From positions 83,388-147,387 of the forward strand of contig CAWJRG010000006.1 in assembly GCA_963845185.1 (NCBI GenBank): a stretch of DNA of 64,000 nt, read 5' to 3'. The position numbers and the translations under genes are program-made. This document shows positions 24,152 to 56,359 of this stretch, in pieces (within the stretch, counting starts at the first letter, position 1; each line of letters opens with the position of its first letter). The DNA comes from an uncultured bacterium. Lineage in GTDB: Bacteria > Oederibacteriota > PGYV01 > CAWJRG01. The notes below the pieces were generated by a model, which saw nothing but the letters and a program-made list of their open reading frames with translations, had not been told where the DNA came from and did no database searches.

Positions 24152-25613
24152 GTGGATTATTCCAACAAACTCAGTATTCAGCAGGAACTCAAACAATATT
24201 TAAGGTTAACGCCCGAGATGCGGCTCAGACTGGACGTGCTGCAGGCAACAAGCCTTGAACTCAAGGAAATCCTAAGCAAGGAACTCGAGGAAAACCCTGT
24301 CATTGAAGACATTATTTATCCGGAGGATGATGTTGAGCCGAGCGGGGAAAAACAGGATAAAAAAGAAGAAACAGAAGAAATAAAGATAAACGACAACAAG
24401 GCGCATCTCGAAGAAATAAACAGCGAAGAGTATGAAAATGTGTTTCCCAAAGACGATTTTGAAAACAAGAGCGGTTACGAGGAGGAATATAACCCGGAAT
24501 TCGCGAAAATAAGGGACAGAAAATACAACAATACGCCGGCTGAAGAAAAAAAAGACCTGCAGTCCGAGCTTAAAAGGCAGCTTGACAGCCTTGATATTAT
24601 GCACGAGGACTATGCTGCTGCCGAAATTCTTGTCTCAAACATCGACAGCGACGGATTTTTAACAGAGGATATTGGTACAATATCACTGGCAAGCGGCGTG
24701 CAGGAGGCAACACTGAATAAAATGCTTGAAGTCATAAAAACATTCGAGCCGGCCGGCGTCGGTGCAAGAAACGTGAGCGAAAGCCTGATGATACAGCTAA
24801 GGCAGAAAAACCAGAAAAGATTCGCTGGCTTATCAAATCGTGGAAAAATATTTCGGCCTTTTGTCAAAAAAAGAATATAAGAAGCTTGCAAGAATATTCA
24901 AGGTAAGCGAGCAGGACATAAAAAAGGCCGAGGAAATAATGAAGGAGCTGTCCCCTTATCCGGGAAGGAACCTTACGAAATACGCAAACGAATATATAGT
25001 GCCGGATATAATAGTAACCGAGGAAGACGGCATATACAGGATAAACATGGCAGGGGACATTCCGGAGATAAAGATAAACAAAGAGTATCTGGAAATGTAC
25101 AAGGAAAAAAAAGAAACAAAGGATTTTATAAGGAAATACGAGGCCAGGATAAAAGCCATACTTTCATCAATAGAAGAACGGAATAAAACAACGGTAAAAG
25201 TCGTCGGTAAAATCCTTGAAATTCAAAGAGATTTTTTGAGCAACGAAATGACGGGCCTGAAGCCGCTCACATTAAAAGAAATTGCCGGCGACGTTGGAGT
25301 GCATGAGTCCACAATCAGCAGGATAGTGTCGAGAAAATATGTTCAAATGCCGTCGGGGGTTTTCCCTTTAAAAATGTTTTTTTCAGGCAAGCTTGACACT
25401 ACCGAAGGAGAAGTTTCCAGCTCCTCAATAAAAGAAAAAATCAAGGGCATGATTGAAAACGAAGATAAAACCAATCCGTTGACCGATATGGAAATATCAG
25501 ATTCTTTAAATAAGCAGGGAGTAAATATTTCGAGAAGGACAATTGCGAAATACAGGGATCAGGCTGACATCCCTTCGGCGGGGATGAGGAAAAGATTGAG
25601 CATAAAGGATTAA
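24152..25613 (+). CDS. rpoN: RNA polymerase sigma-54 factor, split by +1 A in a homopolymer near 24816
   Basis: ELEENP and FEPAGVGARN in ORF1; VHESTISR and RpoN box SRRTIAKYR in ORF2; removing one A gives QKDSLAYQIVEKYF. Confidence 0.92.
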
Positions 25614-25669
25614 TTTAATTTTCAAGTCGCCAATCATCTATTTCCAATTTTAAAAATAAAAAAAATAAG

Positions 25670-25697
25670 GTAGAGACACGCCAAGGCGTGTCTCTAC
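25670..25697. repeat. GTAG-type REP-like palindrome
   Basis: GTAGAGACACGCC-AA-GGCGTGTCTCTAC perfect 13-bp stem. Confidence 0.65.
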
Positions 25698-25754
25698 AAA
25701 TAAAAGTAAATAACGTCAAGAAACCTTAGTGGGGGAAAATGACGGATGCGGCTG

Positions 25755-25809
25755 GCTCGCTTCAACTCCCAATGAAATGATAATTTTTGGTGCGGATGGT
25801 GGGAGTTGA
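25755..25809 (-). repeat. Direct-repeat copy of tRNA-Leu 3' end plus trailer
   Basis: Near-identical to 25965-26020; includes 22 bp identical to the tRNA 3' end. Confidence 0.85.
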
Positions 25810-25998
25810 CTACTACGCCGCTACTTCGCGGCTGCCCTTCGTTTCACTCAGGACAGTCATCTCTAAGACTCGATAAAACCTCGCCTAAGAGGCTGACTGC
25901 GTAGTCTCCCCTCGCTATGCTTTCGCTCGCCGCCGGCTCGCTTTTCACCCAATGGGTGCGCATAGCTCGCTTCAACTCCCAATGATATAATAATTTTT

Positions 25999-26084
25999 TG
26001 GTGCGGATGGTGGGAGTTGAACCCACACACCCTTGCAGGTACTAGAACCTGAATCTAGCGCGTCTGCCATTCCGCCACATCCGC
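25999..26084 (-). tRNA. tRNA-Leu(CAG)
   Basis: Reverse complement GCGGATG...CTAGA-TTCAGGT-TCTAG, long variable arm, GGTTCAACTCC, CATCCGC-ACCA. Confidence 0.95.
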
Positions 26085-26202
26085 ACGGGTATCATTTTTA
26101 GCATATAAAATATTGAAATGCAACAAAAAATCTTTTATTGAAGTCCGGATTTTACTTAGAAAAGGCTGATTTAAGAGGAGGAACTTTGAAACAATAATAA
26201 AT

Positions 26203-26230
26203 GGAACTTATTATTATAAGATTTGTCTAA
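26203..26230 (+). promoter_or_regulatory. Putative ECF promoter GGAAC-N17-GTCTAA
   Basis: Recurrent motif; upstream of S53 peptidase. Confidence 0.6.
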
Positions 26231-26271
26231 AATGTTATATAATATACAGGTAAATAAAAAGAGGTGTGTTG

Positions 26272-28539
26272 ATGAGGATAAAAGCAGTATTCGGCATTAT
26301 TTTGGCCGGTGTAGTCCTGATACCATTGCGGGCTGCTGCGGATAATGCAACTGTTTTGCAGGAGAAACAAATATTGCACGGCCATATTCCGCCGGATGTT
26401 GCGTCGGCAAAACAGCTTGAAAAACTCGACGGGAAAAAGCGCCTGAAGCTTGTAATAGGACTGCCTCTGCACGACAAACAGGCATTGAAGGAATTCCTCG
26501 CTGGTGTCAGCAACCCCAAAAGCCCGAATTACCGGCATTACCTCACGTCACAGGAATTTATTGACAAATACTGCGAGACCCGGGAAGAATACGTCAGGGT
26601 AAAGGAATTTTTGAAATCAAAAAATTTAAACATAACAAATACATTTCCTGACAGAATGCTGATAGACGCTGAAGGCGCTGCTTCGGACATAGAAAAAGCA
26701 TTTAACGTAAATTTTTATAACTACCGGCGCACCGATAGCACTGTTTTTTACGCGCCGGATACCGAGCCGTCAATAGATTCCGGTATTGCCATCCTGCATA
26801 TAAGCGGGCTTAGCAACGCCGGTATTTTAAAGCCTATGGCGCTTACCGGGTCCGGGTTAAACGGGTCTTTTATGGGCCAGGATTTCAGGAATGCTTATGC
26901 GCAGGGCGTGCCGTCATCGCTTATTGGAACCGGACAGATAGTGGGCATATTTGCCATGGATAATTATTATACAAGCGATATCACCGCATACGAACAACTG
27001 GCTTCTCTTCCGAATGTTCAGATAACAAACAAAATTGTTTACGGCTCACCTGCTACGTTTTACAATTACAACAGCGAGCTGAGCATGGACATTTCTGCTG
27101 TAATATCCATGGCGCAGGGCTGCCAGGTGTATGTATACGAAGCATATTATGACGGCACCCAGGGAGGTTATGACAACATACTTGAGGCCATGGCAGGCGA
27201 CACCCAGGTCAATCAATTTACAAGTTCATTTTCAGTAGCACCGCCGCTGGACATCACAGCGTTGAACAGTTATTTAAAAATAGAGGCTCAGGGGCAGTCA
27301 TTTTTTCATGCTTCCGGGGACAGCGGTGCTTATGCCCCGGGTTCAATGGCGGGCTTTGATATTGAACTGCCTGACATTACTATAGTAGGCGGTACCGATT
27401 TAACGACAGTGACAGGCGGCGGAGCATGGGTCTCTGAAACCGTATGGAACGACTGGTGCGGCGCAAGCGGCGGAGGCATATGCCCGGATATAACTATTCC
27501 ATATTACCAGCAGGGAATAATCAATTCCGCAAATGCGCCTTATGTTTCTACTTCATACAGGAACATTCCTGATGTGGCTGCGGTCGCACAGGATGTGTTT
27601 ATTGTTTACGACAGCGGGGTTGAGGCCATGGATTGCGGGACCAGCTTCGCATCGCCCCTGTGGGCCGGTTTTTGTGCACTTATAAACCAGGAGGCAGCCA
27701 TACGCGGAAATTCGCCTGTAGGGTTTTTAAACCCGGCTATATATGCCATAGGAGAAGGACCGAATTATACAACAGATTTTCACGACATTACAACCGGCAA
27801 CAACGGTAGCAGCACGCAATATCCCGCTGTTACGGGGTATGACCTATGCACAGGATGGGGCTCGCCCAACGGCATGCCGCTTATAAGCGACCTGGCAGGG
27901 CCGACACAGTCAGACACGCCGACAATAACCCAGACGTACACGGCAACGCCTGTAGTGTCATCAACAGACACGCTGACAGATACGCCTACCTTAACTCAGA
28001 CAGATACGCCTACAATAACGCTGACAGCCACAATGACGCTGACTCAAACAGATACACTTACCCAGACCCAGACATACACACCAACACCGGTATTGTCAGA
28101 TACAGATACACCTACCATTACTTTTACACCCACGCAGACAAACACTTTTACCTGTACGCCGACATTTACAGTATCACCGCAATATTCGCCTACCAGCACC
28201 CAAATTGTCACGGGAAATACAGAGCTTGTAATAAGCAATGTTTTTGTTTATCCAAACCCATTGGAAACAGGGGATGACAAGCTTTACATACGACTGGATG
28301 CAACGCATCAGCCACAGTCCATAAGCATGAAAATTTACACAGCATCTTTCAGGCTGATAAAAGAAAAAACATGGAGCGCAGATTCCATGGCTTCAATAAC
28401 CTGGCATTATACTGTGAATATACCAGCAGGGGAACTAAACAACCTGGGAAACGGGACTTATTATTATGTTCTTACAGCAGAAGACAGCGCTGGTATGCAG
28501 GTAAAAAGCAGTACAGGAGTGCTTATTGTGTTAAAATAA
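26272..28539 (+). CDS. Secreted S53 (sedolisin/kumamolisin) peptidase with prodomain, Thr/Pro linker and YPNP C-terminal domain
   Basis: Prodomain PKSPNYRHYLT; ELSMD (E/D), ASGDSG, GTSFASP (Ser), GYDLCTGWGSP Ca site; VYPNP...NGTYYY...IVLK. Confidence 0.9.
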   Translation: MRIKAVFGIILAGVVLIPLRAAADNATVLQEKQILHGHIPPDVASAKQLEKLDGKKRLKLVIGLPLHDKQALKEFLAGVSNPKSPNYRHYLTSQEFIDKYCETREEYVRVKEFLKSKNLNITNTFPDRMLIDAEGAASDIEKAFNVNFYNYRRTDSTVFYAPDTEPSIDSGIAILHISGLSNAGILKPMALTGSGLNGSFMGQDFRNAYAQGVPSSLIGTGQIVGIFAMDNYYTSDITAYEQLASLPNVQITNKIVYGSPATFYNYNSELSMDISAVISMAQGCQVYVYEAYYDGTQGGYDNILEAMAGDTQVNQFTSSFSVAPPLDITALNSYLKIEAQGQSFFHASGDSGAYAPGSMAGFDIELPDITIVGGTDLTTVTGGGAWVSETVWNDWCGASGGGICPDITIPYYQQGIINSANAPYVSTSYRNIPDVAAVAQDVFIVYDSGVEAMDCGTSFASPLWAGFCALINQEAAIRGNSPVGFLNPAIYAIGEGPNYTTDFHDITTGNNGSSTQYPAVTGYDLCTGWGSPNGMPLISDLAGPTQSDTPTITQTYTATPVVSSTDTLTDTPTLTQTDTPTITLTATMTLTQTDTLTQTQTYTPTPVLSDTDTPTITFTPTQTNTFTCTPTFTVSPQYSPTSTQIVTGNTELVISNVFVYPNPLETGDDKLYIRLDATHQPQSISMKIYTASFRLIKEKTWSADSMASITWHYTVNIPAGELNNLGNGTYYYVLTAEDSAGMQVKSSTGVLIVLK

Positions 28540-28606
28540 GGCCATATAACAGGGTGTATTTGCAAGTCTGGTTCAAAAAGCAGGGGATTTTAATGTAATA
28601 TTTATT

Positions 28607-28634
28607 GGAACTTTTTGGCATAAAATTTGTCTAA
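28607..28634 (+). promoter_or_regulatory. Putative ECF promoter GGAAC-N17-GTCTAA
   Basis: Recurrent motif; upstream of PQQ-propeller gene. Confidence 0.6.
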
Positions 28635-28749
28635 TTATTAAAGGTTTTTACAATTAAAAGAACTTAAATAGCATATAATTTTATTCAGGGGAGGCGTATG
28701 GTTTGCAGTTGATTAGAAACAGTAAAAGCCAAAATACGGGTTGGAAAAG

Positions 28750-30537
28750 ATGAGTGAGGCATTAATACATATTGCAAGGGATAAAAGACGGTTAAAAAGT
28801 ATTTTTTTTATCCTGTTATTAATGTCTTTTTGCCTGCCTGTTCATGCCGATGTATGGGCAGACAGGCACGGTACCACGAGTACAGCAGGTATAGATTCGG
28901 GGACAAGATATAATCCTTATTCAAACCTAAAACCACCACTTGTTTTATTATGGTCACAGACAAATTGGAACGGGACCAACACTGCCATACAAGAATCCTG
29001 TCCTGCAATAGTAAATGGAATAGTGTATGTGGGTTCTTTTAACGGCAACTTATATGCATGGGACACGTCAACAGGAACACCTATTCCTGGATTTCCTGTC
29101 AGTGCAGGAGTGGGAGTAACTATCTCTTCATCTCCTGCAGTTGTAAATGGAATTGTTTATATAGGAGCATGGAATGGAAACTTATATGCATGGAATGCTA
29201 CAACAGGGGCAAGTATTCCGGGATTTCCTGTCGGCACAGGAAACATGATTTGGACTTCATCGCCTGCAGTAGAAAATGGAATTGTATATGTAGGTTCTGA
29301 GGATGGAAAATTATATGCATGGAACGCATTGACGGGAGCAAGTATTGCGGGATTTCCCGTAAGCACAGGTTTAGTAATTGACTCATCACCCGCAATATCA
29401 AACGGCATTGTATATGTAGGTTCAAGTGATGGAAAATTATATGCATGGAACGCATTAACAGGGGCGGGTATTACAGGATTCCCTGTTTCTACAGGAATGT
29501 ATATCAGATCAATGCCGTCAATCGCAAATGGAATTGTATGCGCGTTATCATGGGATACTAATTTTTACGCATGGAACGCGTTGACAGGAGCGATTAGCCC
29601 GGGATTTCCTATAGGTACCGGAGGCCAGGGCGACTCATCCCCGGCAATAGCAAATGGAGTTGTTTGTGTTGAGGGAGGCAACGGAGATTTGTACGCGTGG
29701 AATCAGTCAACAGGAGCAGCTATTTCCGGCTTCCCGGTAGCTTTACCCGGGTCTACCGGATATACGAATACTTCGCCGGCAATAGCAAATGGATATATAT
29801 ATGTAGGCAGCGATGCAAATATAGTAAATGCAATTGATATAACAAACGGGAATATCGTATGGCAATACCAATTGCCGTTAAATTGGGGGGATGAGGGATT
29901 TGATAATGCCTCGACAGCTATTGCTGAAGATAAATTATTTGCAACATCAGACCAGGGAAACGGAATATTTGTGTTTTGCATGCCAAGCCCTACAATAAGC
30001 GCAACAATAACGCCTACATACACAATTTCGCCGACTTATACAATCACAAACACTTATACGTTTACGTTTACTATAACAGAAACATATACTAATACGCCCA
30101 CTTTTACTATATCACCAACCGGCACAATTACGAACACTTATACATCAACTATAACCATATCTCAAACCAATACGATTACAATAACACAAACACTGACACC
30201 TACGGCAAGCATGACATGTACAATAACCGTAACGCCCACATCGGTAATACCATTTTGCCTTACATTATATAAAAATTCGCCCAACCCATGTTTAAACGGA
30301 ACGAATATAATTTATCAATTGTGCGACGAGGCAGAAGTTAATGTAAAAATATACACAATAAGCGGCGAGGTTGTGGTGGAGTTAACACAACAGGGGCAGC
30401 CTGGAATGAACAGCATATACTGGGACACCAAAAACAAAGCAGGCAGGGGTGTGGCGAGCGGAACATTTATTTACAGCATAGAGGCAGTTGGAAAGTCAAA
30501 GCAAAAGGCTTGGGGAAAGATGGCGGTGGTGAAATGA
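28750..30537 (+). CDS. Secreted PQQ-like (BamB-type) beta-propeller protein + Thr linker + NSPNP/FlgD-Ig C-terminal domain
   Basis: ~40-aa repeats SSPAIxNGIVYVGSxDGKLYAWNAxTG; C-terminal CLTLYKNSPNP...VASGT...WGKMAVVK; start codon uncertain. Confidence 0.85.
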   Translation: MSEALIHIARDKRRLKSIFFILLLMSFCLPVHADVWADRHGTTSTAGIDSGTRYNPYSNLKPPLVLLWSQTNWNGTNTAIQESCPAIVNGIVYVGSFNGNLYAWDTSTGTPIPGFPVSAGVGVTISSSPAVVNGIVYIGAWNGNLYAWNATTGASIPGFPVGTGNMIWTSSPAVENGIVYVGSEDGKLYAWNALTGASIAGFPVSTGLVIDSSPAISNGIVYVGSSDGKLYAWNALTGAGITGFPVSTGMYIRSMPSIANGIVCALSWDTNFYAWNALTGAISPGFPIGTGGQGDSSPAIANGVVCVEGGNGDLYAWNQSTGAAISGFPVALPGSTGYTNTSPAIANGYIYVGSDANIVNAIDITNGNIVWQYQLPLNWGDEGFDNASTAIAEDKLFATSDQGNGIFVFCMPSPTISATITPTYTISPTYTITNTYTFTFTITETYTNTPTFTISPTGTITNTYTSTITISQTNTITITQTLTPTASMTCTITVTPTSVIPFCLTLYKNSPNPCLNGTNIIYQLCDEAEVNVKIYTISGEVVVELTQQGQPGMNSIYWDTKNKAGRGVASGTFIYSIEAVGKSKQKAWGKMAVVK

Positions 30538-30650
30538 AATTCAAGATTCAGAATGGGAAGTGGGAGAACACGCTGGTCAATATTGAAGTTCAGCGCTTGC
30601 TGGAGAAAGGCTGATTTTAAGAAACAGTGGTTTTTAATGCAATAATTATT

Positions 30651-30678
30651 GAAACTTTTTAGCATATAATTTGTCTAA
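30651..30678 (+). promoter_or_regulatory. Putative ECF promoter GAAAC-N17-GTCTAA
   Basis: Recurrent motif; upstream of PorV-OmpA gene. Confidence 0.55.
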
Positions 30679-30802
30679 ATAATAAAGGTTTATATAAAAA
30701 TTTATTGCCAAAATTAAGCCTAAATGGTGTATAATTGTTTCGATAATAATATAGTTTGTAGCTGATTATAAGCAGGAGAAATTAAAATACAGGAGGGTTA
30801 TT

Positions 30803-32776
30803 ATGAGAAAGATATTATTATTTGTCGTTTTTGGCATGGTTGTGTTTTTTAACAGTCTTTACGCAGGGGCGGAGCTTGTCGGCACAACGAGCACTAATTT
30901 CCTTAAAATCCCGCCTTTTGCCAGGGCAGAAGGCATGGGAGAGGCATATTCCGCCATATCAGACGGCACATACGGCCTGTATTACAACCCCGCTGGAATA
31001 GGCTCGATAATAGGATATGAGGCCCAGGCGAGCCATATAGCCTGGTTCCAGGACATAAATTATGAATTTGTTTCCTTTGTTGGTTCGTTCCCGCATGCCG
31101 ATGATATTGGAAAGTTCGGCATAGCTATCGCATGGCTGCAGGTAAACAACATGGCCAGGACATCTGTATCGCCGTCCTACGATTCATCCTATTTAAACAG
31201 CATAAACCCGGACAGCCTGATAAGCGGCAGTTTTTCCCCTTTTGATTATTCGGTTATACTCGGGTACGGGCAGGACATAAATGAGAATTTCAGCGCCGGA
31301 TTGACGCTCAAGATTAATTCGGAAAACATAGATACTTTCAGCGGCGAGAATGTGGCGGGAAATTTAGGAGTAATGTATAAGCTGGCGCTGGATAATAATT
31401 TTATCAGGGCAGGGTTGACTATTTCAAACCTCGGCATGGGTTTAAAGATGAGCACCTCTTCTTTCAGCACGCCGCTGAATATGCAGATCGGTGTGGCAGA
31501 CCAGATTAATTTATTCGGGAACGAGCTTACCCTGGCAGGGCAGGTCATACCGCAGACAGATTACAACCCTATATGCGGCGTTGGCGCGGAATACTGGGTA
31601 GACAACATAATGGCGCTAAGGCTGGGCTACGAATTCGGTGCGTTTACCCAGCCGACATTCGGCGTAGGCTTAAAATACGCGGACATCGAGTTTGACTACG
31701 CTTTTGTAAGCTATGATGAACTGGGAAATACCAACAGGGTTTCACTGGTTTATTCCTGGGGCACGCCGCCTTTGAAGCTGAAAACCACCCCTGCGGTTTT
31801 TTCGCCCAACGGAGATAAATACATGGACTGGACATATTTTTTCCCTTCGACAAAACTGCCCAATAAAATAAGGTCGCTCAAAATAGACATTTATGACGAG
31901 ACCGGGCAGACGCTTTTAACAAGCATTCAGGCTAAAAGCGGGTTTGACAAATACATGGCATGGGACGGCAAGGCAAACGGCGTTGTTTTAAAAGACGGTG
32001 TGTACAAAGCAAAAGCAACGGCAGAATACGACAACGGGAAATCGGAGTCAAACGAAACTACAGTGGAAGTAGACAATACGCCGCCTGAAGTGAGGGTCGA
32101 CGCTGAGCCGAAACTTTTAAGGCTTGGCCAGGAAAACCTGATGATACCGGCGACATTCACCCTTTTCGCGCATGACAAAAATAACATAGGGGCATGGCAG
32201 TTTACAATATGGGACAAGGACAAAAAGGTATTCTTTTCAACACAGGGCAAGGGCGAACCGCCTATTTCGTACATATGGGACGGCAAAGGGAACAACGGCG
32301 ATTACGTGAATACCGGAAATATTTATTATTACAGCTTAACCGCTTACGACTCGGTGGGAAACAAGGCGCAGACACCGGCTCAATCGCAGGTTGTGCTGCT
32401 TAAGGAAATAAAACTCACGTTCTCGTCTGATACGCTGTTTGACCTTGGCAAGGCAGACGTCAAAATATCAGCTTATAATATCCTGAAGGGTATGAAAGAA
32501 ACACTCGACAAATACCCGGAGAGCGACATAGTAGTCGCGGGCTATACAGACAATACCCCGGTTATGGCAGGGAAATACGGTTCAAATACGGAGCTGTCCA
32601 AAGCAAGGGCGGATGCTGTCAAGTTTTTCATGGTAAACCTGCTTGAAATGGACGAGAACAGGATAAAGACAGAAGGCTACGGCGAAGCGCAGCCCATAGC
32701 GCCAAACGATACGGATGAAGGCAGGCAGAAAAACAGGCGTGTTGAGATAATAATAAAAAGCACCATATATAAATAA
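30803..32776 (+). CDS. PorV/PorQ-family outer-membrane barrel fused to FlgD/CHU_C-like Ig domains and an OmpA peptidoglycan-binding domain
   Basis: GTTSTNFLKIPPFARAEGMGEAYSAISDG...YYNPAG PorV-family N-terminus; barrel ends RVSLVYSWG; FSPNGD, WDGK twice; LFD...GYTD...LSKARA...GYGE...NRRVEI. Confidence 0.85.
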   Translation: MRKILLFVVFGMVVFFNSLYAGAELVGTTSTNFLKIPPFARAEGMGEAYSAISDGTYGLYYNPAGIGSIIGYEAQASHIAWFQDINYEFVSFVGSFPHADDIGKFGIAIAWLQVNNMARTSVSPSYDSSYLNSINPDSLISGSFSPFDYSVILGYGQDINENFSAGLTLKINSENIDTFSGENVAGNLGVMYKLALDNNFIRAGLTISNLGMGLKMSTSSFSTPLNMQIGVADQINLFGNELTLAGQVIPQTDYNPICGVGAEYWVDNIMALRLGYEFGAFTQPTFGVGLKYADIEFDYAFVSYDELGNTNRVSLVYSWGTPPLKLKTTPAVFSPNGDKYMDWTYFFPSTKLPNKIRSLKIDIYDETGQTLLTSIQAKSGFDKYMAWDGKANGVVLKDGVYKAKATAEYDNGKSESNETTVEVDNTPPEVRVDAEPKLLRLGQENLMIPATFTLFAHDKNNIGAWQFTIWDKDKKVFFSTQGKGEPPISYIWDGKGNNGDYVNTGNIYYYSLTAYDSVGNKAQTPAQSQVVLLKEIKLTFSSDTLFDLGKADVKISAYNILKGMKETLDKYPESDIVVAGYTDNTPVMAGKYGSNTELSKARADAVKFFMVNLLEMDENRIKTEGYGEAQPIAPNDTDEGRQKNRRVEIIIKSTIYK

Positions 32777-32798
32777 TCAAAGTCAATTACGAATCATA

Positions 32799-32824
32799 CC
32801 CGCCGGCTCCTGCCGGCGGGGTTT
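32799..32824 (+). terminator. GC hairpin after the PorV-OmpA gene
   Basis: CCCGCCGGC-TCCT-GCCGGCGGG then GTTT. Confidence 0.5.
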
Positions 32825-32865
32825 ACTGATTGCCGAAGGAGTTCAATGATTTTCAAGGAGTGGAC

Positions 32866-34080
32866 ATGAAAGAAAATAAAATTAAGGCAATAATCATTTC
32901 AGGCATAATTTTATTTTATTGTTCGCAAAGAGCAACGGCCTGCGTTTCATATTCTGATGATTTCAGCAACCCGGCCACGATTAATTATTACAACTATTTT
33001 AATGTCAATTCGCAGTCACCGGGTACTCCCGCGAGCACGGGTTATCAAATAACGGGCGGGGAACTTAATGTTGTAGGCAACCAGGGAAACAACAACATGG
33101 GGGGAGTGGCAGTTGTAAACAGCGCGTATTTCAGCGGCACTACTGATTACCAGATAGACGTGGACGCGGAGATGGACTCAACATCAGCAAATGGACAATA
33201 TGGAATATTCGGAATAGCATTCAGGGTGCAGAGCAACGGCTCTTTTTATTCTTTCCAATGGAACGCCGACCCTTCACGCGCGGGCGGGAGCGCAGGTGAC
33301 TGGGAAATAGAGAAGTGGGGCTCATATCTTGCGGGCGGAAACACCAATTATACTTACGGCACGTGGGTGCACCTTACGGTGGTAGTGAGCGGAAACACAT
33401 TCACATGTTACCTGAATTACGTGCAAATTTACCAGGTGACTGATAATTCATATACAAGCGGCGCGGTGGGAGTGAGGACATACGCCATTGCCAACGGGAA
33501 CGTGGCGAGGTTCAAAAATTTCGTGGTGAATACCTGTGCAAGAATAGGCACGCCGACATTTACTCCGGTAGTGACGGAAACATGGACGCCGACAGAAACT
33601 GAGACATCGATACCTACAGAAACTGCAACATGGACGCCTACGGCAACAATAACGCAGACATTTACTATGACGGCAACTTTTTCAATGACGCCGACTTTAA
33701 CCATTACTCCTTCCATAACTGCTACAGGCACTATTACACAGACATTTACAGTCAGCCCCACTTATACTAATACCATGATAGCCACACCCACTCCATGCCT
33801 GGCATTATATAAAAATTCGCCAAACCCTTTCACTGTTGGCACAAACTTTATATTTGGTTCATGCATCCAGGTGGAAGTAAAGTTGAAAATATACACCATA
33901 AGCGGCGAGCTTGTGGATGAATTGACTCAGCAGGGTCAGCCGGGAATGAACAGCATATACTGGGATGCTAAAAACAAAGCAGGCAAGGGCGTGGCAAGCG
34001 GGACATATATTTACAGCTTTGAGACAGTTGAAGGCATGTCAAAGCAAAAACAGTGGGGAAAAATGGCTGTAGTGAAATAA
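32866..34080 (+). CDS. Secreted concanavalin/DUF1080-like beta-sandwich protein + Thr linker + NSPNP C-terminal domain
   Basis: Signal peptide; YSDDFS, GIAFR, WVHLTVVVSGNTFTCY, GAVG...FKNF; same CTD ending WGKMAVVK. Confidence 0.75.
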   Translation: MKENKIKAIIISGIILFYCSQRATACVSYSDDFSNPATINYYNYFNVNSQSPGTPASTGYQITGGELNVVGNQGNNNMGGVAVVNSAYFSGTTDYQIDVDAEMDSTSANGQYGIFGIAFRVQSNGSFYSFQWNADPSRAGGSAGDWEIEKWGSYLAGGNTNYTYGTWVHLTVVVSGNTFTCYLNYVQIYQVTDNSYTSGAVGVRTYAIANGNVARFKNFVVNTCARIGTPTFTPVVTETWTPTETETSIPTETATWTPTATITQTFTMTATFSMTPTLTITPSITATGTITQTFTVSPTYTNTMIATPTPCLALYKNSPNPFTVGTNFIFGSCIQVEVKLKIYTISGELVDELTQQGQPGMNSIYWDAKNKAGKGVASGTYIYSFETVEGMSKQKQWGKMAVVK

Positions 34081-34081
34081 A

Positions 34082-35722
34082 ATGCGGTTAAAAAGTCTTT
34101 TATTTGTTCTGCTATTAATATTTTTTTGCCTACCAATTTATGCCGATGTCTGGGCCGACAGGCACGGAACTACAAGCACAGCAGGCATAGATTCGGGAAC
34201 GCGGTATAATCCTTATTCGACGTTAAAACCCCCTCTGATATTGTTGTGGTCGCAGACCAACTGGGACGGATATGATGGTTCGGGAAATACAATTAATGTC
34301 ATACAGGAATCATCGTCGGCAATAGTAAATGGGATTGTGTATTTGGGGTCTTCAAACAACTGGTTTCCTGCAAGCCATGGTTTATACGCGTGGGACACGA
34401 ATACAGGCGCACTTATTGCCGGTTTTCCCATAACCCCACCTAATAATACAACATCCTCGCCGGCAATAGCAAATGGAATAGTTTACATAGGTTCGGAAGA
34501 CGGTAATTTATATGCATGGAATGCGGCGACAGGGGCAGGCATTGCAGGATTTCCAGTCAGTACAGGAGGCCGGGTTTGGTCCTCGCCGACAATAGCAAAT
34601 GGGATTGTTTATGTCGGGTCGGAAGATGACAAATTATACGCATGGAACGCCCTAACAGGAGCAGGTATTCCGGGATTCCCGGTAAGTACCGGAGGCATGA
34701 TTGATTCATCGCCAACGATAGCGAATGGAATTGTTTATGTGGGCTCAAGGGACCATAAATTATATGCATGGAACGCCCTGACAGGGGCAGGTATACCCGG
34801 ATTCCCGGTAAGCACCGGGTATGATATTGAATTATCTTCTCCTGCCGTGGCAAATGGAGTTGTTTATGTGGGGTCAATGGACAATAAATTATATGCATGG
34901 AACGCCCTGACAGGGGCAGGTATGCCCGGATTCCCGGTAAGCACCGGGAGCAATATTGCGTCGTCGCCTGCAGTGGCAAACGGTTATGTATATGTTGGGT
35001 CGTGGGATAATAATTTATACGCGATTGATATTACAAACGGAAACATTGTATGGCAATAAACATTCCCATCAAATGGCGGCTATGAAGGCACTGACCGCTG
35101 TTCGCCTGCGATAGCAGAAGACAAGCTTTTTATGACATCAGACGAAGGAAACGGAATATTCGTATTCTGTATGCCAAGCCCGAATGCAACGCCAACAATA
35201 ACCGGGACGCCGCCGACTGCGACGGTTTTTCCAACAATAACGCCTACATTGACAATAACGCAAACGTATACAATTTCACCGACGCTTACGGCAACCATGA
35301 CGTATACAAAGACGGTATCACAGACATGCACTTATACGCAGACAACGACATTTACAATATCGCCAACCGGTACAATTACACCTACGCCAAGCATGACATG
35401 CACAGAAACAATAACACCCACACCGGTAATACCGTTTTGCCTGACATTATATAAAAATTCGCCCAACCCCTGTTCATACGGCACGAATATAATATACCAG
35501 TTGTGCGACGAGGCTGATGTAAATGTAAAGATATACACGATAAGCGGCGAGGTCGTCGTGAAACTTTCGCAGCATAGCCAGCCGGGCATGAACAGCATAT
35601 ACTGGGACACCAAAAATAAAAGCGGCAAAGGCGTGGCAAGCGGGACATATATTTACAGCTTAGAGGCTGTTGAGGGCAGGGAAAAACAAAAACAGTGGGG
35701 AAAGATGGCTGTAGTGAAGTAA
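34082..35722 (+). pseudogene. Paralog of the 28750 PQQ-propeller protein interrupted by an in-frame TAA at 35057
   Basis: ORFs 34082 and 35132 are in the same frame; paralog has TGG CAA TAC where this has TGG CAA TAA, and alignment continues without gaps. Confidence 0.8.
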
Positions 35723-35832
35723 GATTTGGGATTTGGAATTTGGCATTCCGGGGATTTATTCATTAATTAAAAAAATATGATATAATATTGTTGTGCAGGG
35801 AGCACGAGTTCCCGGGATAGAGGTGTTTTAAT

Positions 35833-38253
35833 TTGGCAAAAACAATAAAATATTTCCTGTTTTTCTTATTTGGATTTTTTATAATAAATTCCCATGCCCT
35901 GGCAGACACTCCGCCATGTTACCTCCTTAGCTGGGGAACTTCCGGAACAGGCAACGGGCAGTTTAACGGCTCTGCCGGAATGGCAATAGCCGGCGACGGA
36001 AACGTGTATGTTGCAGACGGTTTAAATAACAGAATCCAGGAATTCAGCAGTTCGGGGGCATATATTACCCAATGGGGAAGTTATGGGAGCCTCAATGGCC
36101 AGTTTATTTTGCCCGCGGGATTAGCCTTAGACAGCAGCGGAAATGTTTATGTTGCAGATATGGGCAATAACAGAATACAGGAATTCAGCAGCACAGGCGC
36201 ATATATAACGCAATGGGGCAGTCCCGGGACCGGCAATGGGCAGTTTAATAATTCTCCCGGCGACGTCGCAGTATCCAGCAGCGGGAACATATATGCTGTA
36301 GACACTTATGATTTCAGGATTGAGGAATTCAGCAGCACAGGCGCATATATAACGCAATGGGGAAGCCAGGGAAGCGCCAACGGGCAGTTTAATTATCCTG
36401 GCCCAATAGCCATAGACAGCAGCGGAAACGTATATGCTACAGACGAGATTAATGACAATATCCAGGAATACAGCAGCAACGGCACCTATATAACTCAATG
36501 GGGAAGCGCCGGGAGTGGAAACGGGCAGTTTAACCGCCCCATTGGAATAGAATTTGGCAGTAACGGCAACCTTTATGTTGCGGACAGCCTTAATAACAGG
36601 ATCCAGGAATTCAGCAGCACGGGCGCATATATAACGCAGTGGGGAACTTCAGGGGCCGGCCCCGGGCAGTTTAATTATCCAAATAATGTTGCGATAGACA
36701 GTGGCGGGGATGTGTATGTTTCAGATTCGGGTAATTACAGAATCCAGGAATTCGGCTGGTGTGGTAGCCCCACGCCGACTTTCACTGCATCGCCAATAGT
36801 AACACCTACAATATCACCTACGATGACGCCGACATATACTGCCACTTTTACATCAGGGCCGACACCTTGTTTCGTACGCAGTTGGGGGAGTACCGGGAGC
36901 GGCAATGGGCAGTTTAATTATCCGTGGGGAGTAGCAGTAGACAGCAGCGGGGACGTTTATGTTGCAGACATTGATAATAACAGGATCCAGGAATTCAGCA
37001 ATACGGGCACATACATAACACAATGGGGCAGCGTGGGAAGCGGCAGTGGGCAGTTCAGCGCGGCCCGTACATTAGCAGTAGCAAAAAACGGAAATGTTTA
37101 CGTTGCAGACCAAGGTAATAACAGAATCCAAGAATTCAGCAGTAGCGGCACATATATCACACAATGGGGCAGTTATGGAATCAGCAGTGGGCAGCTTAGT
37201 GGTCCTATCGGAATTGCTATAGACAGCAGCGGAAATGTATATGTTGCAGACACAGGTAATAATAGAATCCAAGAATTCAGCAGTACAGGCACATATATAA
37301 CACAATGGGGAAGCACTGGAAGCGGCAATGGGCAATTTAACAATCCAGTTGGAATAGCAGTATCGAGTAACGGAAACGTGTATGTTGAAGATAATCATAA
37401 TAACAGGATTGAGGAATTCAGCAGTAGCGGCACATATATCACACAATGGGGAAGTCTTGGGAGCAACCCCGGGCAATTTCATTTTCCTTATGGTATAGCA
37501 GTAGACAGCAGCGGGTACGTGTATGTTTCGGATGTAAACAACAGGATCCAGGAATTCAGCAGCACAGGCACATATATAACACAATGGGATAATGGTTTTA
37601 ACGGCCCTATTGGAGTAGCAGTAGACAACAATGGAAACATTTTTGTCGTGGACAACGGCAACAACATAATAGAGGAATTCGGCTCGTGCGGCAGTCCCAC
37701 GCCGACCCTGCAGGTGACGCCGTCATCGACATGGACAATAACGCCGACATTTACCATATCGGAGACTGATACAATCACAAACACTTTTACAGCAACATTA
37801 ACGATAACACAAACGCTTACTGAAACTCCGACTTATACCATATCGCCGACCAATACAATTACTGCAACAATAACGCCCACTCCAAGCATGACATGCACCG
37901 CTTCAATAACACCCATTCCCAGCATAACATGCACTATAACAGCGACATCCACGCCGCAGGCGCCGCTTTGCCTGACTTTATACAAAAATTCGCCTAACCC
38001 GTGCTCAAACGGCACAAATATAATTTACCAGTTATGTGATGAGGCAGAGGTAAATGTAAATATATACACCATCAGCGGCGAAGTGGTGAGAGAACTCTCG
38101 CAGCAGGGTGAGCCTGGGATGAACAGCATATACTGGGATACTAATAATAAAACAGGCAGGGGAGTTGCAAGCGGAGTATATATTTACAGCATCGAGGCAG
38201 CTGACGGGCAAGGAAAGAAAAAAGCATGGGGAAAGATGGCGGTGGTGAAGTAA
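35833..38253 (+). CDS. Secreted protein with two 6-bladed NHL propellers, Thr/Pro linkers and NSPNP C-terminal domain
   Basis: Signal peptide (TTG start, GAGGTG RBS); 12 NHL repeats; CTD ending WGKMAVVK. Confidence 0.88.
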   Translation: MAKTIKYFLFFLFGFFIINSHALADTPPCYLLSWGTSGTGNGQFNGSAGMAIAGDGNVYVADGLNNRIQEFSSSGAYITQWGSYGSLNGQFILPAGLALDSSGNVYVADMGNNRIQEFSSTGAYITQWGSPGTGNGQFNNSPGDVAVSSSGNIYAVDTYDFRIEEFSSTGAYITQWGSQGSANGQFNYPGPIAIDSSGNVYATDEINDNIQEYSSNGTYITQWGSAGSGNGQFNRPIGIEFGSNGNLYVADSLNNRIQEFSSTGAYITQWGTSGAGPGQFNYPNNVAIDSGGDVYVSDSGNYRIQEFGWCGSPTPTFTASPIVTPTISPTMTPTYTATFTSGPTPCFVRSWGSTGSGNGQFNYPWGVAVDSSGDVYVADIDNNRIQEFSNTGTYITQWGSVGSGSGQFSAARTLAVAKNGNVYVADQGNNRIQEFSSSGTYITQWGSYGISSGQLSGPIGIAIDSSGNVYVADTGNNRIQEFSSTGTYITQWGSTGSGNGQFNNPVGIAVSSNGNVYVEDNHNNRIEEFSSSGTYITQWGSLGSNPGQFHFPYGIAVDSSGYVYVSDVNNRIQEFSSTGTYITQWDNGFNGPIGVAVDNNGNIFVVDNGNNIIEEFGSCGSPTPTLQVTPSSTWTITPTFTISETDTITNTFTATLTITQTLTETPTYTISPTNTITATITPTPSMTCTASITPIPSITCTITATSTPQAPLCLTLYKNSPNPCSNGTNIIYQLCDEAEVNVNIYTISGEVVRELSQQGEPGMNSIYWDTNNKTGRGVASGVYIYSIEAADGQGKKKAWGKMAVVK

Positions 38254-38357
38254 TATTATATAGAAGAATGTAGAGTCAAATTATAAATAATTCCCTATTC
38301 GATGGTGTATAAAAAAGTATGTAATTTCAATTTTTATTATTATCTGAAAAGAATTTT

Positions 38358-38509
38358 CCCTCTCTCTCGGCGGGAGAGGGCGGAGATTTTTATGATTTCT
38401 CCATACCCCTCACTCTGACTCTTGGGTAGAAAAGCATATTTTAAATTATAAATGACTTCTACCCGTTTAATAATCCACAGGATTATTTAACTCAACAAGG
38501 GGAGAGAGG
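38358..38509. repeat. REP-like CCCTCTC...GGGAGAGG palindromes, second copy interrupted
   Basis: CCCTCTCTCTCGGCGGGAGAGGG; CCCCTCACTCTGACTCT[68 bp]CTCAACAAGGGGAGAGAGG. Confidence 0.5.
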
Positions 38510-38656
38510 TTGTTTGTTTTTGAAATTACACACAAATTAAGACAATACCACCTGTTTCTCGCCTCTTGATAAAACCAATAAATAATGATAATATGCAAAC
38601 AACTTTTGGGAATCGGGAATAGAGAATCGGGAATTGATGATTGTAAACGGTGAAAA

Positions 38657-40742
38657 ATGGCTGAAAAATACTTAAAAAAGGCGTTTGAAATATTCCTGCT
38701 TTTTTACATAACTTTTATACCGCTTGTATTTTTTAATCACGCAAACGACCCTTTCTGGATCGTGGAAAAATTTTTCCTCAGGTTCGCGGTTTCAATACTT
38801 ATCTGCATATTCCTTATATACATGCTCGCTGCCAAAAAATTCCTTTTGATAAAAACGCCTTATAACATTTTATTCCTGGCTTTTATCGGCATAAACCTGA
38901 TTGGGATATTCAAAATATCCAACTTTTACGCGTTTATTGACAGGTTCTTTGAAAATATATGCTATATAATTACAGCTTACCTTGCCTTGCTTTACCTTTT
39001 ATCGAACCGGCAGTCTGATAAAACATACAAGATACTCGCACTTTTGGTTTCTGCGGCTTTTTTTATGGCAATTTACGGCATAGCCCAGAGCCTTGGCATT
39101 GATTTCCTGTCGTGGCAAAACAATTTCTCGAACCGCGCTGCTTCGACTCTCGGCAACCCGAATTTCCTGGCAGGGCACATGGTGCTTATAATACCGCTGT
39201 GTTATGCCATGATATTCATGGCCCAGAACAGGCTGTTAAGGTTCGCTATGCTCCTGGTTTCAATCATTACAACCACTGTACTTCTTTTTACGCAGACAAG
39301 GGGCGCGTACATAGGGTTTGGAATTTCCGTAATATTTTTTATTTTGCTTTTTGCGTTTTACGCAAGGGATACCATAAAAAAATATAAAGTATGGGTGATA
39401 ATTTTTTGCTGCATTGCGGCAGGCATTGCAGCCGCTTACCTTGTGAAAAACCACAATGCACTTTGCAAGGATAAAGGAAATAGTGACCTTAAAAGACGAG
39501 TCGATGCGTATCAGGACATTGCTGTGGAAAAACAGCCTTTATCTGATTGCGGAAAACCCATTGCTCGGCTCGGGCGCAGGCAATTTTTACGCCAAATACC
39601 CTTACTACCAGTCAAGGGCGCTTGATTATACTTATTTTGCAAACAATGATTTTTACCGCTCGGGCCACAGCCATAATGATTTTATCCAGTTCGCAGCGGA
39701 ATACGGCATACCAGGCGCGGGAATAATATTTGCCATATTCGCCCTGATATTCATAACCGGGTTCAGGTACTTAAAAAAAGCCGATACTTTTCACCCTCTC
39801 TCTGCCTCTCTCCCGTCGAGGGAGAGAGGATTTGAAAAGGACAAGATGCTTGTTATAGGAATATTTCAGGCATAACAGGACTGCTCATACACGCATTTTT
39901 TAATTTTCCATTCCAGATAATACCCACAACCGTGGTTTTTTATTTGTTTTTAAGCATGATGGTTTTCAGTGAAAAGGAATTTTCCATCAAGAGAATTTCC
40001 TGTTACAGGGGCGGCAAGGATTGCGGGCGCGGTTTACTCATGATTTTCATTACAGCCGGCGTAATTGCCGTAAGGGCTCTTGCCTCAGACTCTTATTTAA
40101 GAAGCGCGAAAGAAGCAGACTATTTCAAACAGCCGGAAAACGCGGCAGGCTACGCGGCCCAGGGCAATAAGGATTACGCCGTGGAACGAAGACGAGCTGT
40201 TTTTTTACGGCCAGGTGATGGACAAACTGGGCAAAAAAGCAGACGCTGACAGGAGCTATGAGCAGGTTTACAAAATAAACAAGACATACTGGGAGGCGAT
40301 GCCGCAGGTTTTTCAATACTATATGGAGCAGGGAATGAAAGTCAAGGCGCTCGACGTCGGCGAAGAAATGTACAAAATGTCGCCTTACGCGAAAAAATCC
40401 ATAATTGCGCTGGCTTACGCTTATTTCATGAACGGGAAAACCGGTGACGCGATAAGAATAAGCGAGCAGGGCATTAAATATTATCCGGACGACTCCACTA
40501 TACTGGACCAGCTTTCGGGCATTTACGGCAGCGCAGAGAATTATGAAAAGACGCTGTTTTACGCGCAAAAGGCAATTGAGGCAGAGCCGGGTTTTTCCGA
40601 GCCTTATTACAACGCGGGCCTGGCATATTTCAAAATGAAAAATTACAGGGAAGCAAAAAAGATGATTGATAAAATGCTTGTTCTTGAGCCGGACAGCGGC
40701 AAAGGCAAGTCCCTGCTTGAGGCCATAAAAAATGCCAAATGA
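38657..40742 (+). CDS. O-antigen-ligase family + TPR protein, fragmented by about five single-base indels
   Basis: RAASTLGNPNFLAG, TQTRGAY, GSGAGNF, HSHNDFIQ, HAFFNFP, TPRs; indels near 39463, 39866, 39992, 40034 and 40157 restore one frame. Confidence 0.8.
39791..39829. repeat. REP-like palindrome embedded in coding sequence
   Basis: TCACCCTCTCTCTGCCTCTCTCCCGTCGAGGGAGAGAGG matches intergenic copies at 50731-50768 (reverse) and 50878-50917. Confidence 0.75.
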
Positions 40743-42882
40743 CAGGAAAACTATTTTTATCTCAATAATACTGTTTTTGCTCACTTTTAACATATACGTG
40801 TATACCTTAAACCCGGTTTTTCACGCAGATGACTCGCCTGAGACTATCGCGTGCTCTTACACGCTCGGCATACAGCACCCGCCGGGCTATCCGCTGCCCA
40901 CGCTGATCGGAAAAATATTCACACTGATACCGGCAGGCAATATAGGATTCAGGGTAAATCTGCAGGCTGCTTTTTTCGCGGGGCTTGCCGCGGTTTTTAT
41001 TTTTCTCGCGATACTCGACATACTCAGGAAAAAGGAATTTGACGCAGGCATTGCCTTTACGTCGGCATCTGCCGCGGCTTTAAGCTTTGCGTTTTCGGAT
41101 GTTTTCTGGAGCCAGGCGCTTTCGGCAAAAGGCGGTATTTATACATTCAACGCCTTTTTTATAGCGGCTTTAATCTACCTGATTTTTCTGTGGGAAAGGA
41201 AACGCGAAAACAAGTATTTCTATATTTTCAGCCTTATGTGCGGCTTATCTGCGGCAAACCACTGGGAAAGCGTGCTTGTGGCAGTGCCGGCATTCCTGGT
41301 TTTTATCACGCTGGTTTTGCTCGACAACAGGTTTTATCTGAAAGTAAAATCAAAAAGCGCGGTTTACGCGGCCTGCTTTTTCCTTTTTGGGATTTTTGCC
41401 TATGTTTACCTTGTTATCCGCGCGAGAGCAGGCACTTATCTGGACTGGGGAGACCCTGTGAACTTTAAACAGCTCGCTTGGGTTGTAACAAGGGCGGAAT
41501 ACACGCACCTCGAGAAAGCCGCGGACATAAGTGTCATTCTCAAGCAGGCGGCAAGGATTTTAAAGTTCCTTATATCCGAGTTTTCAGTCGCCGGGTTCCT
41601 GATTTTTTTATACGGCATTTTTTGTTTCTGGAAATCCGGAAAAACCAGGCGGCTTGCCCTGGTTGGCGTGCTTTTTTTGACTGTCATTCTAAGCCTTGCG
41701 TTTTACCTCAACCTAAAGGACGAGATGATATGGGTCATGGATGTTTTTCTTATCCCGGCTTATCTGGCAATGGCGTTTGTGCTGGGCGCGGGCATAAGCG
41801 GGATTTTAAGCCTGATAAAAAAATTATACAGCGGGAAAACCGTACGCTATACTGCTTTGGCCATGGTATTTTTGCTGCCTGCATGGAACTTTTACTCAAA
41901 CTATCACAAATGCAGCCAGGACAGATATTTTTACGCTTATGATTTCGGCAAGAATATAACAAAATGCGTGGACAGCGGAGGCGGCATGGCTCTGCTGGAA
42001 GGCGATTACGCGGTAATGCCGCAGATGTATTTTAAATACGTGGAGAAAAACGTGAATTTCTGCCCGATAACCACTTTGTTTTTATCCACGGACTGGGGCG
42101 TGAAAAATCTTAAAAGGGACTGCCCGCTGATCTCAGTCATAAACGAGCCGCAGGCCACTTATACGCAGAAGCTGCAGGATATTATCGCGCTTAATTACAA
42201 GGAAAGGAACGTATATGTTTCAATATTCAGGCAGGCTTTCCAGCAGTTTTACAAGGAAGGCGATAATTTTATGGTCCCGAACGGCGTCCTTATGAAACTG
42301 TCAACAAACAGGATGGCTACCCTCAAACAGGCGGAAATAAATTTTAAAAGGATAACATACAGGAATTTGGTTGACGACAAACTTTACCAGGACTCATCCA
42401 CCAAGTTCTGCATATCAAATTACGCAAGCGCGTACATGGAAGCGGGGAACGCATACAGGAATTTAAAGATGGACGGCAAGGCGCTATTATATTTGACCAG
42501 GGCAATAGAGCTCGCGCCTGAGCAAAACAGGGCAGAGGCATACACGCACGCGGGAATTGAATATTCCACCATCAACAGGTATAATGACGCTGTGGACGCA
42601 TACCAAAAAGCATTGGCGATAAAGCCGGGGCTGATTGAAGCGCGCTCAAACCTCGCGGGCACATACAACATACTAAAGGAATATGACAAGGCCATAGAGC
42701 AGGCAAGCGAGGCCATCAAGATAAACGACAAGTTTTCGGAAGCGTATAACAACCTCGCCATTGCCTATTATTATAAGGGAAACAAGCAGGAAGCGATAAA
42801 TGTGCTTGAAAAGGCGGTCGCGATTGACCCGAACAACACAATGGCGCAGAACAACCTGAATATTTTAAGAGGACAAAAATAA
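40732..42882 (+). CDS. DUF2723 (TMEM260-like) GT-C membrane protein with TPRs
   Basis: DDSPETIACSYTLGIQHPPGYP, FWSQA, NH, WGDP motifs; C-terminal TPRs. Confidence 0.88.
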   Translation: MPNDRKTIFISIILFLLTFNIYVYTLNPVFHADDSPETIACSYTLGIQHPPGYPLPTLIGKIFTLIPAGNIGFRVNLQAAFFAGLAAVFIFLAILDILRKKEFDAGIAFTSASAAALSFAFSDVFWSQALSAKGGIYTFNAFFIAALIYLIFLWERKRENKYFYIFSLMCGLSAANHWESVLVAVPAFLVFITLVLLDNRFYLKVKSKSAVYAACFFLFGIFAYVYLVIRARAGTYLDWGDPVNFKQLAWVVTRAEYTHLEKAADISVILKQAARILKFLISEFSVAGFLIFLYGIFCFWKSGKTRRLALVGVLFLTVILSLAFYLNLKDEMIWVMDVFLIPAYLAMAFVLGAGISGILSLIKKLYSGKTVRYTALAMVFLLPAWNFYSNYHKCSQDRYFYAYDFGKNITKCVDSGGGMALLEGDYAVMPQMYFKYVEKNVNFCPITTLFLSTDWGVKNLKRDCPLISVINEPQATYTQKLQDIIALNYKERNVYVSIFRQAFQQFYKEGDNFMVPNGVLMKLSTNRMATLKQAEINFKRITYRNLVDDKLYQDSSTKFCISNYASAYMEAGNAYRNLKMDGKALLYLTRAIELAPEQNRAEAYTHAGIEYSTINRYNDAVDAYQKALAIKPGLIEARSNLAGTYNILKEYDKAIEQASEAIKINDKFSEAYNNLAIAYYYKGNKQEAINVLEKAVAIDPNNTMAQNNLNILRGQK

Positions 42883-56319: not shown

Positions 56320-56359
56320 AATACAGTAATTTCGCAATGGATTGTTACAGGAGGAAAAA

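Follow-up and report, generated by a model that had tools for sequence, protein, structure and literature searches.

We analysed a 64,000-nt stretch of DNA from an uncultured bacterium (C6:83388-147387 of a 3.50-Mb assembly with 11 contigs and 99.4% completeness), which we call the window. At positions 26266-38253 it holds six co-oriented genes on the + strand, one of them in two pieces. A barrel protein of the PorV/PorQ family is encoded there among secreted proteins, the cargo, that end in a C-terminal sorting domain (CTD). [quoted passage not shown] The window contributes the link of this class to one barrel clade as well as a rule that relates the size of a CTD class to the pairing of its genes with barrels.

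The barrel protein (657 aa) scored 143.6 bits against the NCBIfam model PorV_fam (NF033709, cut-off 90), covering model positions 1-325 of 326, and stayed under the equivalog cut-offs for PorV (NF033710, 49.1 versus 250 bits) and PorQ (NF033711, 73.2 versus 220 bits). It has a signal peptide at approximately aa 1-22, and its AlphaFold model (predicted local distance difference test, pLDDT, 83.6) contains a helical plug at 32-68 and about 14 strands at 72-319. The top Foldseek matches of the model were 8gl6_F (E 1.8e-14) and 6h3i_F (E 3.9e-14), the PorV chains of solved T9SS translocons, with TMt values of 0.65-0.68. A profile built from 45 homologues matched Flavobacterium johnsoniae PorV (6h3i_F) with an E value of 1.3e-18. 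The protein is PorV-like, with a PorV-like fold, and is fused to two immunoglobulin (Ig)-like domains and one OmpA-like domain. This agrees with a first-pass annotation of the window, which had placed a PorV/PorQ-family gene among five co-oriented secreted proteins and had asked whether the barrel is merely FadL-like.

The PorV/PorQ family is FadL-like in architecture, and 9 of the 35 paralogous barrels scanned gave weak matches to the Toluene_X (FadL/TodX) Pfam model. We nevertheless regard it as highly improbable that the window barrel serves to import hydrophobic compounds in the manner of FadL and has no role in secretion: It gave no Toluene_X match at E values up to 0.01, PorV leads its structural matches, and no chain described as FadL or TodX occurs among the matches listed. 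An importer would also leave the systematic pairing with CTD genes (see below) unexplained.

The C-terminal extension of the barrel, about 330 aa long, consists of Ig1 (324-423), Ig2 (429-533) and the OmpA-like domain (535-652). The protein scored 64.3 bits with the OmpA-like model PF00691 (cut-off 27.2) and 37.2 bits with PF13860. Behind the PorV chains, Foldseek returned OmpA-like peptidoglycan-binding domains, among them 3td5_A, which was solved with a peptidoglycan peptide (TMt 0.80). The residues T582, D583, R602, A603, R645 and R646 of the OmpA-type motif, which we take to be those contacting peptidoglycan, are invariant in 45 of 45 homologues. Both termini of an even-stranded barrel lie in the periplasm; this places the extension there as well, where it would link the barrel to the wall. 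The fusion family comprises about 85 full-length homologues. Look-alikes in a protein atlas (score 0.95), which serve as leads only, were PorV/PorQ clusters of Zixibacteria, Gemmatimonadota, Krumholzibacteriota, Ignavibacteriota, Elusimicrobiota, Calditrichota and Bacteroidota. Comparison of the first Ig domain with the cargo CTD by hhalign (probability 54%, E 1.2e-4, 83 columns) is only suggestive of a kinship between the two.

The genes of the cluster and a further cargo gene of the window are given below. CTD classes stem from single-linkage clustering of the 155 tails of the genome at an identity of at least 50% over at least 60 aa.

26266-28539, + strand: cargo 1, S53 (sedolisin/kumamolisin-type) peptidase precursor of 757 aa with Pro-kumamolisin activation domain (PF09286, 92.4 bits), signal-like N-terminus, Thr/Pro stalk at aa 545-650 and class-6 CTD (6 members), end ...IVLK
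28741-30537, + strand: cargo 2, PQQ-like beta-propeller of 598 aa (PF13360, 116.8 bits) with Thr/Pro stalk at aa 413-505 and class-0 CTD (YKNSPNP...WGKMAVVK)
30803-32776, + strand: PorV/PorQ-family barrel of 657 aa (NF033709)
32830-34080, + strand: cargo 3, LamG/3-keto-disaccharide-hydrolase-like protein of 416 aa (PF06439, 26.2 bits, just under the cut-off of 26.8) with Thr/Pro stalk at aa 234-323 and class-0 CTD
34082-35722, + strand: cargo 4, interrupted gene of a second PQQ-like propeller, with stalk and class-0 CTD on the downstream piece (35132-35722)
35833-38253, + strand: cargo 5, protein of 806 aa with a Thr/Pro segment between two NHL propellers (PF01436, 274 bits), followed by stalk and class-0 CTD
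1295-6064, + strand: sixth cargo, NHL repeats, 1589 aa (PF01436, 464.9 bits), end ...NVIILR

Five of the six cluster genes thus encode an N-terminal hydrophobic signal-like segment, a passenger, a Thr/Pro stalk and a CTD of about 95 aa. All six cargo of the window, including the one at 1295-6064, possess the signal-like segment, the stalk, defined as a stretch with at least 50% Thr+Pro, and a CTD with PNP motif. The last residue is K, and R in the sixth cargo. The cargo 2 gene lies directly upstream of the barrel gene with a gap of 266 nt, and the cargo 3 gene begins 54 nt downstream of it. Cargo 4 is interrupted by a single in-frame TAA (35057-35059) at a position where its paralogue has Tyr, such that the gene is either a pseudogene or affected by an assembly error. 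The sixth cargo, found 20 kb from the cluster, had been reported in the first-pass annotation with a start at 1343; the gene is present and starts at 1295. A scan for promoters and terminators was uninformative about operons: Within 25500-38800 we counted 13 terminator-like sites where 12.5 were expected.

We then characterized the sorting tails. The T9SS sorting-domain model TIGR04183 (cut-off 23 bits) was exceeded by three of the six window CTDs, namely those of cargo 2 (27.5), the C-terminal piece of cargo 4 (29.0) and cargo 5 (29.0). The tails of cargo 3 (21.3) and cargo 1 (16.8) stayed under the cut-off. For the sixth cargo the model gave no match; its tail is matched only by the models of PorZ and PorU, in both cases through their CTD ends, and by our own CTD hidden Markov model (HMM) at aa 1494-1582. 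The CTD part of the PorU model also matched the tail of cargo 1 with 30.4 bits. A structural model of the class-0 CTD, based on 22 aligned tails, is a seven-strand Ig-like sandwich (pLDDT 93.7). Its best Foldseek match in the PDB is Porphyromonas gingivalis PorU (6za2, TMq 0.80); PorZ (5m11) is sixth, and Ig-like domains of FlgD follow as well. In agreement with this, the best match of the class-0 sequence profile is the C-terminal end of PorU (residues 1061-1154, E 0.0015). The expectation of an Ig-like sorting fold was thereby borne out. The two lysines K91 and K95, close to the C-terminus, are present in all 22 class-0 CTDs aligned. In type A CTDs, PorV is contacted by a Lys that lies close to the end and hardly varies (Lauber 2024, PMC10994853).

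The layout of signal, Thr/Pro linker, PNP-containing CTD and basic last residue, proposed in the first-pass annotation to be shared by all cargo, was thus found, while its assumption of one conserved CTD family did not hold: Four tails belong to class 0 (72-85% mutual identity, 72% between cargo 3 and cargo 2), the tail of the S53 peptidase to class 6, and that of the sixth cargo lies outside class 0.

The inventory of the whole genome provides the statistical background for the locus. With the CTD HMM, built from the window tails in three iterations, we searched 11,290 open reading frames (ORFs) of at least 60 aa and found 155 with a C-terminal CTD, 125 of which end in K or R. NF033709 gave 40 matches, corresponding to 36 ORFs and thus 36 PorV-family barrels; one split match on contig C9 (approximately 136.6-137.4 kb), which has no single ORF, was dropped. 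The periplasmic extensions of these barrels comprise OmpA-like and Ig domains (5 barrels, including that of the window), TPR (about 10), fn3 (2) or Ig only (3), and about 14 barrels have none.

We considered a barrel as linked if a co-oriented CTD gene ended between -150 and +300 nt from its start. This holds for 24 of the 36 barrels, compared to 116 of 2761 approximate genes overall (4.2%), i.e. the pairing of CTD genes with barrels is far above chance. The clustering yielded classes of 24, 18, 13, 12, 11, 9 and 6 members, three classes of 3, eight of 2 and 37 singletons. A barrel gene directly follows for 13 of 37 singletons, for 8 of 25 tails from classes of 2-3, and for 3 of 93 tails from classes of 6-24. 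Rare tails thus tend to have a private barrel, while common tails mostly do not.

Class 0 is the largest class, and 18 of its 24 proteins carry NHL, PQQ-like or Kelch propellers. Only two class-0 genes directly precede a barrel gene: the PQQ gene of the window (28741-30537) and C10_691201 on contig C10. The barrel at the C10 locus also has 657 aa and is 80% identical to that of the window; a third and a fourth paralogue show 60% and 40% identity, and all others approximately 30% or less. At the nucleotide level the two loci share 76% identity in linker plus CTD and 81% in the barrel, while the passengers differ. The two thus stem from one ancestral cassette that was duplicated as a unit. The class-0-barrel link is confined to these two places, the window and its C10 paralogue. 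Elsewhere on C10 (175140-177030), stops or a frameshift disrupt the CTD of a class-0 cargo gene with a PQQ propeller, which belongs to a tandem array with two intact copies (C10:177525-181671).

The closest relatives of the genome are recorded as 'candidate division FCPU426 bacterium', 'uncultured Spirochaetia bacterium' and 'uncultured bacterium'. The FCPU426 16S cluster has been equated with Goldbacteria (PMC7031533). The host is a bacterium of the FCPU426/Goldbacteria type outside Bacteroidota; the first-pass annotation had supposed a probably non-Bacteroidota diderm. Among the relatives that possess an orthologue of the window barrel, G092 and G093 encode class-0-like CTDs elsewhere in their genomes (122 bits, where non-class-0 CTDs of the genome studied here reach at most 92 bits); G094 is ambiguous with 91 bits. 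NCBI names such proteins of metagenome-assembled genomes (MAGs) 'PorV/PorQ family protein'. In a MAG titled Ignavibacteria (1028-3266), a CTD gene lies 368 nt upstream of a PorV-like gene, so the order of cargo followed by barrel also occurs outside this phylum.

The first-pass annotation, which had seen no sprA or porKLMN in the window, had called for a search of the genome for SprA, PorK/L/M/N and PorU. A single SprA-like ORF was found on C9; it encodes 2145 aa and matches TIGR04189 (SprA/Sov) in four collinear stretches with 183.7 bits (E 3.6e-54). GldL (TIGR03513), GldM (TIGR03517), GldN and PorP (TIGR03519) gave no match in the genome in HMM searches run without positive control. The GldK model matched only in part, through its C-terminal portion and with no more than 45 bits (cut-off 350); such matches are also seen in Bacillus subtilis, Caulobacter and Methanosarcina and are therefore generic. 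The PorU model matched 51 times, in 50 cases by its CTD end only; with the PorU equivalog model NF033707 the best protein, a C25 peptidase with CTD, reached 65 bits at a cut-off of 420. No PorZ equivalog was found, where no genome-wide PorZ search was made. Of the components sought, a SprA-like ORF slightly under the model's cut-off was thus recovered, PorKLMN were not, and PorU stayed under its cut-off; a canonical T9SS was not detected.

The region C9:170784-188011, some 9 kb upstream of the gene for the SprA-like protein, encodes a further PorV-Ig barrel of 629 aa, which shares only 25% identity with that of the window, as well as a TPR and TolB-like protein, which weakly matches PorW/SprE (25 bits), and a large TPR protein. 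Lipopolysaccharide genes and a chemoreceptor gene lie between this region and the SprA-like gene.

Across the phylum the picture was similar. PorV-family proteins over the cut-off were found in 61 of 61 genomes, with 10 to more than 30 matches each, and SprA-like ORFs in 58 of 61; GldM was found in 0 of 61, again searched without positive control. Overall, the interpretation of the first-pass annotation, a PorV/CTD pathway that is possibly minimal or divergent, is supported: The barrel is PorV-like and not merely FadL-like, the CTD has an Ig-like fold, and the genome is not that of an ordinary Bacteroidota with canonical T9SS. Its notion of a module does not extend to a conserved locus, as outlined below.

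Inside the SprA pore of F. johnsoniae, PorV binds the CTD with its extracellular loops; the carrier-cargo pair exits through a lateral opening, and release needs energy (PMC10994853). By analogy, the cargo of the window would cross the inner membrane via Sec, and within the SprA-like pore the barrel would capture the CTD by means of its extracellular loops, in the way that the F. johnsoniae structure shows for PorV. The barrel-cargo pair would then leave the pore sideways, and the CTD would stay bound, not covalently linked, with the passenger displayed on its stalk above the surface. Non-covalent retention is suggested by the peptidoglycan-binding periplasmic extension together with the lack of a PorU-type sortase conserved in the phylum. 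Retention of the CTD and its binding by the barrel are inferred, as is the absence of the motor.

Several results weigh against a shared class-0 carrier in a motor-less system. The two class-0-linked loci arose from one duplication and count as one observation. The 60%-identical paralogue C10_781060 has no neighbouring cargo, and the S53 neighbour within the cluster carries a CTD of another class (class 6). Three relatives possess full-length orthologues of the barrel (54-59% identity), and a CTD gene was found in the examined flanks of 0 of 3. The SprA-like protein scores just under the TIGR04189 cut-off of 200 bits. The absence of a GldLM motor relies on HMM searches for which the control genomes gave no match either: The GldM model matched 0 of 31 genomes, namely the Ignavibacteria-titled MAG plus 30 others from its phylum, a sample that includes genomes of 1-3 Mb and is doubtful as ordinary Bacteroidota. 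Finally, the genome contains two C25 peptidase genes, one of which has its own CTD (1657 aa; PF01364, 129.2 bits), such that CTD cleavage is possible in this genome. Conserved synteny of the cluster is ruled out by the comparison with the three relatives.

Co-diversification would be expected to leave a trace in the similarity of barrels and tails. Over the 24 pairs the two were correlated (Pearson 0.749, 0 of 5000 permutations). Leaving out pairs with a barrel similarity of at least 0.35, about six recent duplicates, reduced the correlation to a Spearman coefficient of 0.038, which was reached by 641 of 2000 permutations and likewise weakens the case for specific partners. The correlation thus stems from the recent duplicates, and a deep co-diversification of barrels and CTDs is unsupported.

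These results would also fit a different role of the protein, namely a housekeeping tether between outer membrane and wall, i.e. an analogue of OmpA or Pal built on a PorV-type barrel, beside which cargo cassettes landed by chance. Orthologues whose flanks hold no CTD gene, the paralogue standing alone, the single duplication behind both linked loci, the lack of deep co-variation and the transposase genes in the window are what one would then expect. We consider such a chance neighbourhood unlikely. Linker plus CTD was copied jointly with the barrel although the passenger changed, a single barrel is flanked by four class-0 cargo genes, the position behind a CTD gene is shared by two thirds of the barrels of the genome compared to few genes in general, and the closest structural matches are to PorV, a carrier that binds CTDs.

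The C25 peptidase directs attention to the canonical pathway. Here the barrel would be a general PorV for type-A-like CTDs that passes cargo from the SprA-like pore to the C25 (PorU-like) peptidase, which removes the CTD; cargo would be released or attached to a surface glycolipid, and the OmpA-like domain would only stabilise the envelope. In Bacteroidota one PorV serves all type A CTDs (PMC12618676), and half of the window tails are recognised by TIGR04183. A fusion family conserved in this many homologues is expected of a housekeeping carrier. A C25 peptidase, however, occurs in only 7 of 61 genomes of the phylum and in none of the three relatives with an orthologue of the barrel, and the protein of this genome is far from the PorU equivalog cut-off. 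A peptidoglycan-bound barrel would be an odd mobile shuttle, and 36 divergent barrels with cargo-barrel gene pairs speak against one general carrier. Altogether we judge this canonical shuttle to be improbable as well, and retain the shared, wall-tethered carrier as our preferred reading.

The proposed arrangement resembles two pairs of the T9SS attachment complex, in which PorU retains its CTD and remains attached to PorV, and PorZ does likewise with PorQ. The class-0 CTD has PorU as best structural match and PorZ as sixth. Unlike PorU and PorZ, the clients here would not be machinery subunits but common cargo such as propellers and a lectin-like domain. The components of the attachment complex have been listed in PMC12365241.

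Compared to PorV of Bacteroidota (6h3i_F, 8gl6_F), the window barrel belongs to the same NF033709 family and has it as best structural match, with type-A-like CTD cargo encoded alongside and a SprA-like translocon in the genome. It differs in staying under the PorV and PorQ equivalog cut-offs, in its periplasmic Ig and OmpA extension of about 330 aa, in being one of 36 paralogues, and in that no GldLM/GldKN partners were detected by the HMM searches described above.

A further parallel is provided by type B cargo, for which cognate PorP/SprF-like carriers are encoded alongside; three type B orphans of F. johnsoniae share the carrier Fjoh_1677 (PMC12618676). The type B protein PG1035 of P. gingivalis is held by PorP, which in turn binds PorE, a protein that binds peptidoglycan (PMC9143113). 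Similar to PorE-PorP-PG1035 and SprF-SprB, the barrel is encoded next to cargo, would hold the CTD at the surface with a peptidoglycan-binding OmpA_C-like module attached, and may be shared by several cargo. In contrast to them, the barrel here is of the PorV/PorQ and not the PorP/SprF family, the CTDs are type-A-like and not type B, and barrel and wall-binding module form one fusion protein, whereas PorE of P. gingivalis is a separate lipoprotein. One polypeptide would thus do the work of PorP and PorE.

Only tentatively do we extend this picture to the whole candidate phylum, which might perform type IX-style secretion without PorLM motor and PorKN ring. The dozens of PorV-family barrels would then be sockets specific for cargo classes, some of them riveted to the wall by an OmpA-like foot, and the choice of barrel, not motor and sortase, would accomplish sorting, release and anchoring. 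Recent structural studies conclude that type IX transport requires energy where carrier and cargo are pulled from the SprA pore by the GldLM motor and the GldK/PorK hub (PMC10994853; PMC12635249). A lineage with SprA, PorV-type carriers, about 155 CTD cargo and no detectable motor or hub would make the energy question testable, i.e. whether another source is used or release is free of energy input. For sorting type-A-like CTDs among many carriers, the class-size statistics provide a hypothesis: A unique CTD would have a private adjacent barrel, a large class a shared one. Together with the duplicated C10 locus, the window is the only genetic link of the largest class (24 proteins, mostly beta-propellers) to a barrel.

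Reviews place the T9SS in the FCB superphylum (PMC11205867). In the portions of the literature available to our search we found no description of T9SS-like systems in Goldbacteria or of PorV-paralogue expansions outside Bacteroidota, nor of such a system for T9SS combined with Fibrobacter, candidate phyla or Elusimicrobia. PMC7031533, a single-cell genomics study of cellulose-degrading bacteria and the one functional study of the phylum found in that search, does not discuss type IX secretion in the text available; the phrase occurs there once, in the title of a reference.

Downstream of the cluster, on the + strand, lie genes for a TMEM260-like protein O-mannosyltransferase with TPR (40732-42882), a GT1-type glycosyltransferase (42883-44031) and a PMT_2-like membrane protein (48664-50631). 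These are candidates for O-glycosylation of the Thr-rich stalks.

Upstream, the sigma-54 gene rpoN is split into the overlapping ORFs 24152-24880 and 24840-25613 (+ strand) by a frameshift or an assembly error; each ORF encodes one half of the core-binding domain, which is preceded by the activator-interacting domain in the first ORF and followed by the DNA-binding domain in the second. Just downstream of the cluster, an O-antigen-ligase-like (Wzy_C) gene is likewise split into overlapping ORFs (38657-39625 and 39456-39875, + strand). Three broken genes within 16 kb (rpoN, Wzy_C and cargo 4) suggest consensus errors in the assembly.

Mobile elements on the + strand are represented by a DUF772/DDE transposase in two ORFs (51002-52458) and an IS21-type pair of integrase-core transposase and IstB ATPase (59370-61690). 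Between them, a 369-aa protein (56342-57451, + strand) shows a partial serpin match (PF00079, 34.3 bits) that covers the C-terminal third only.

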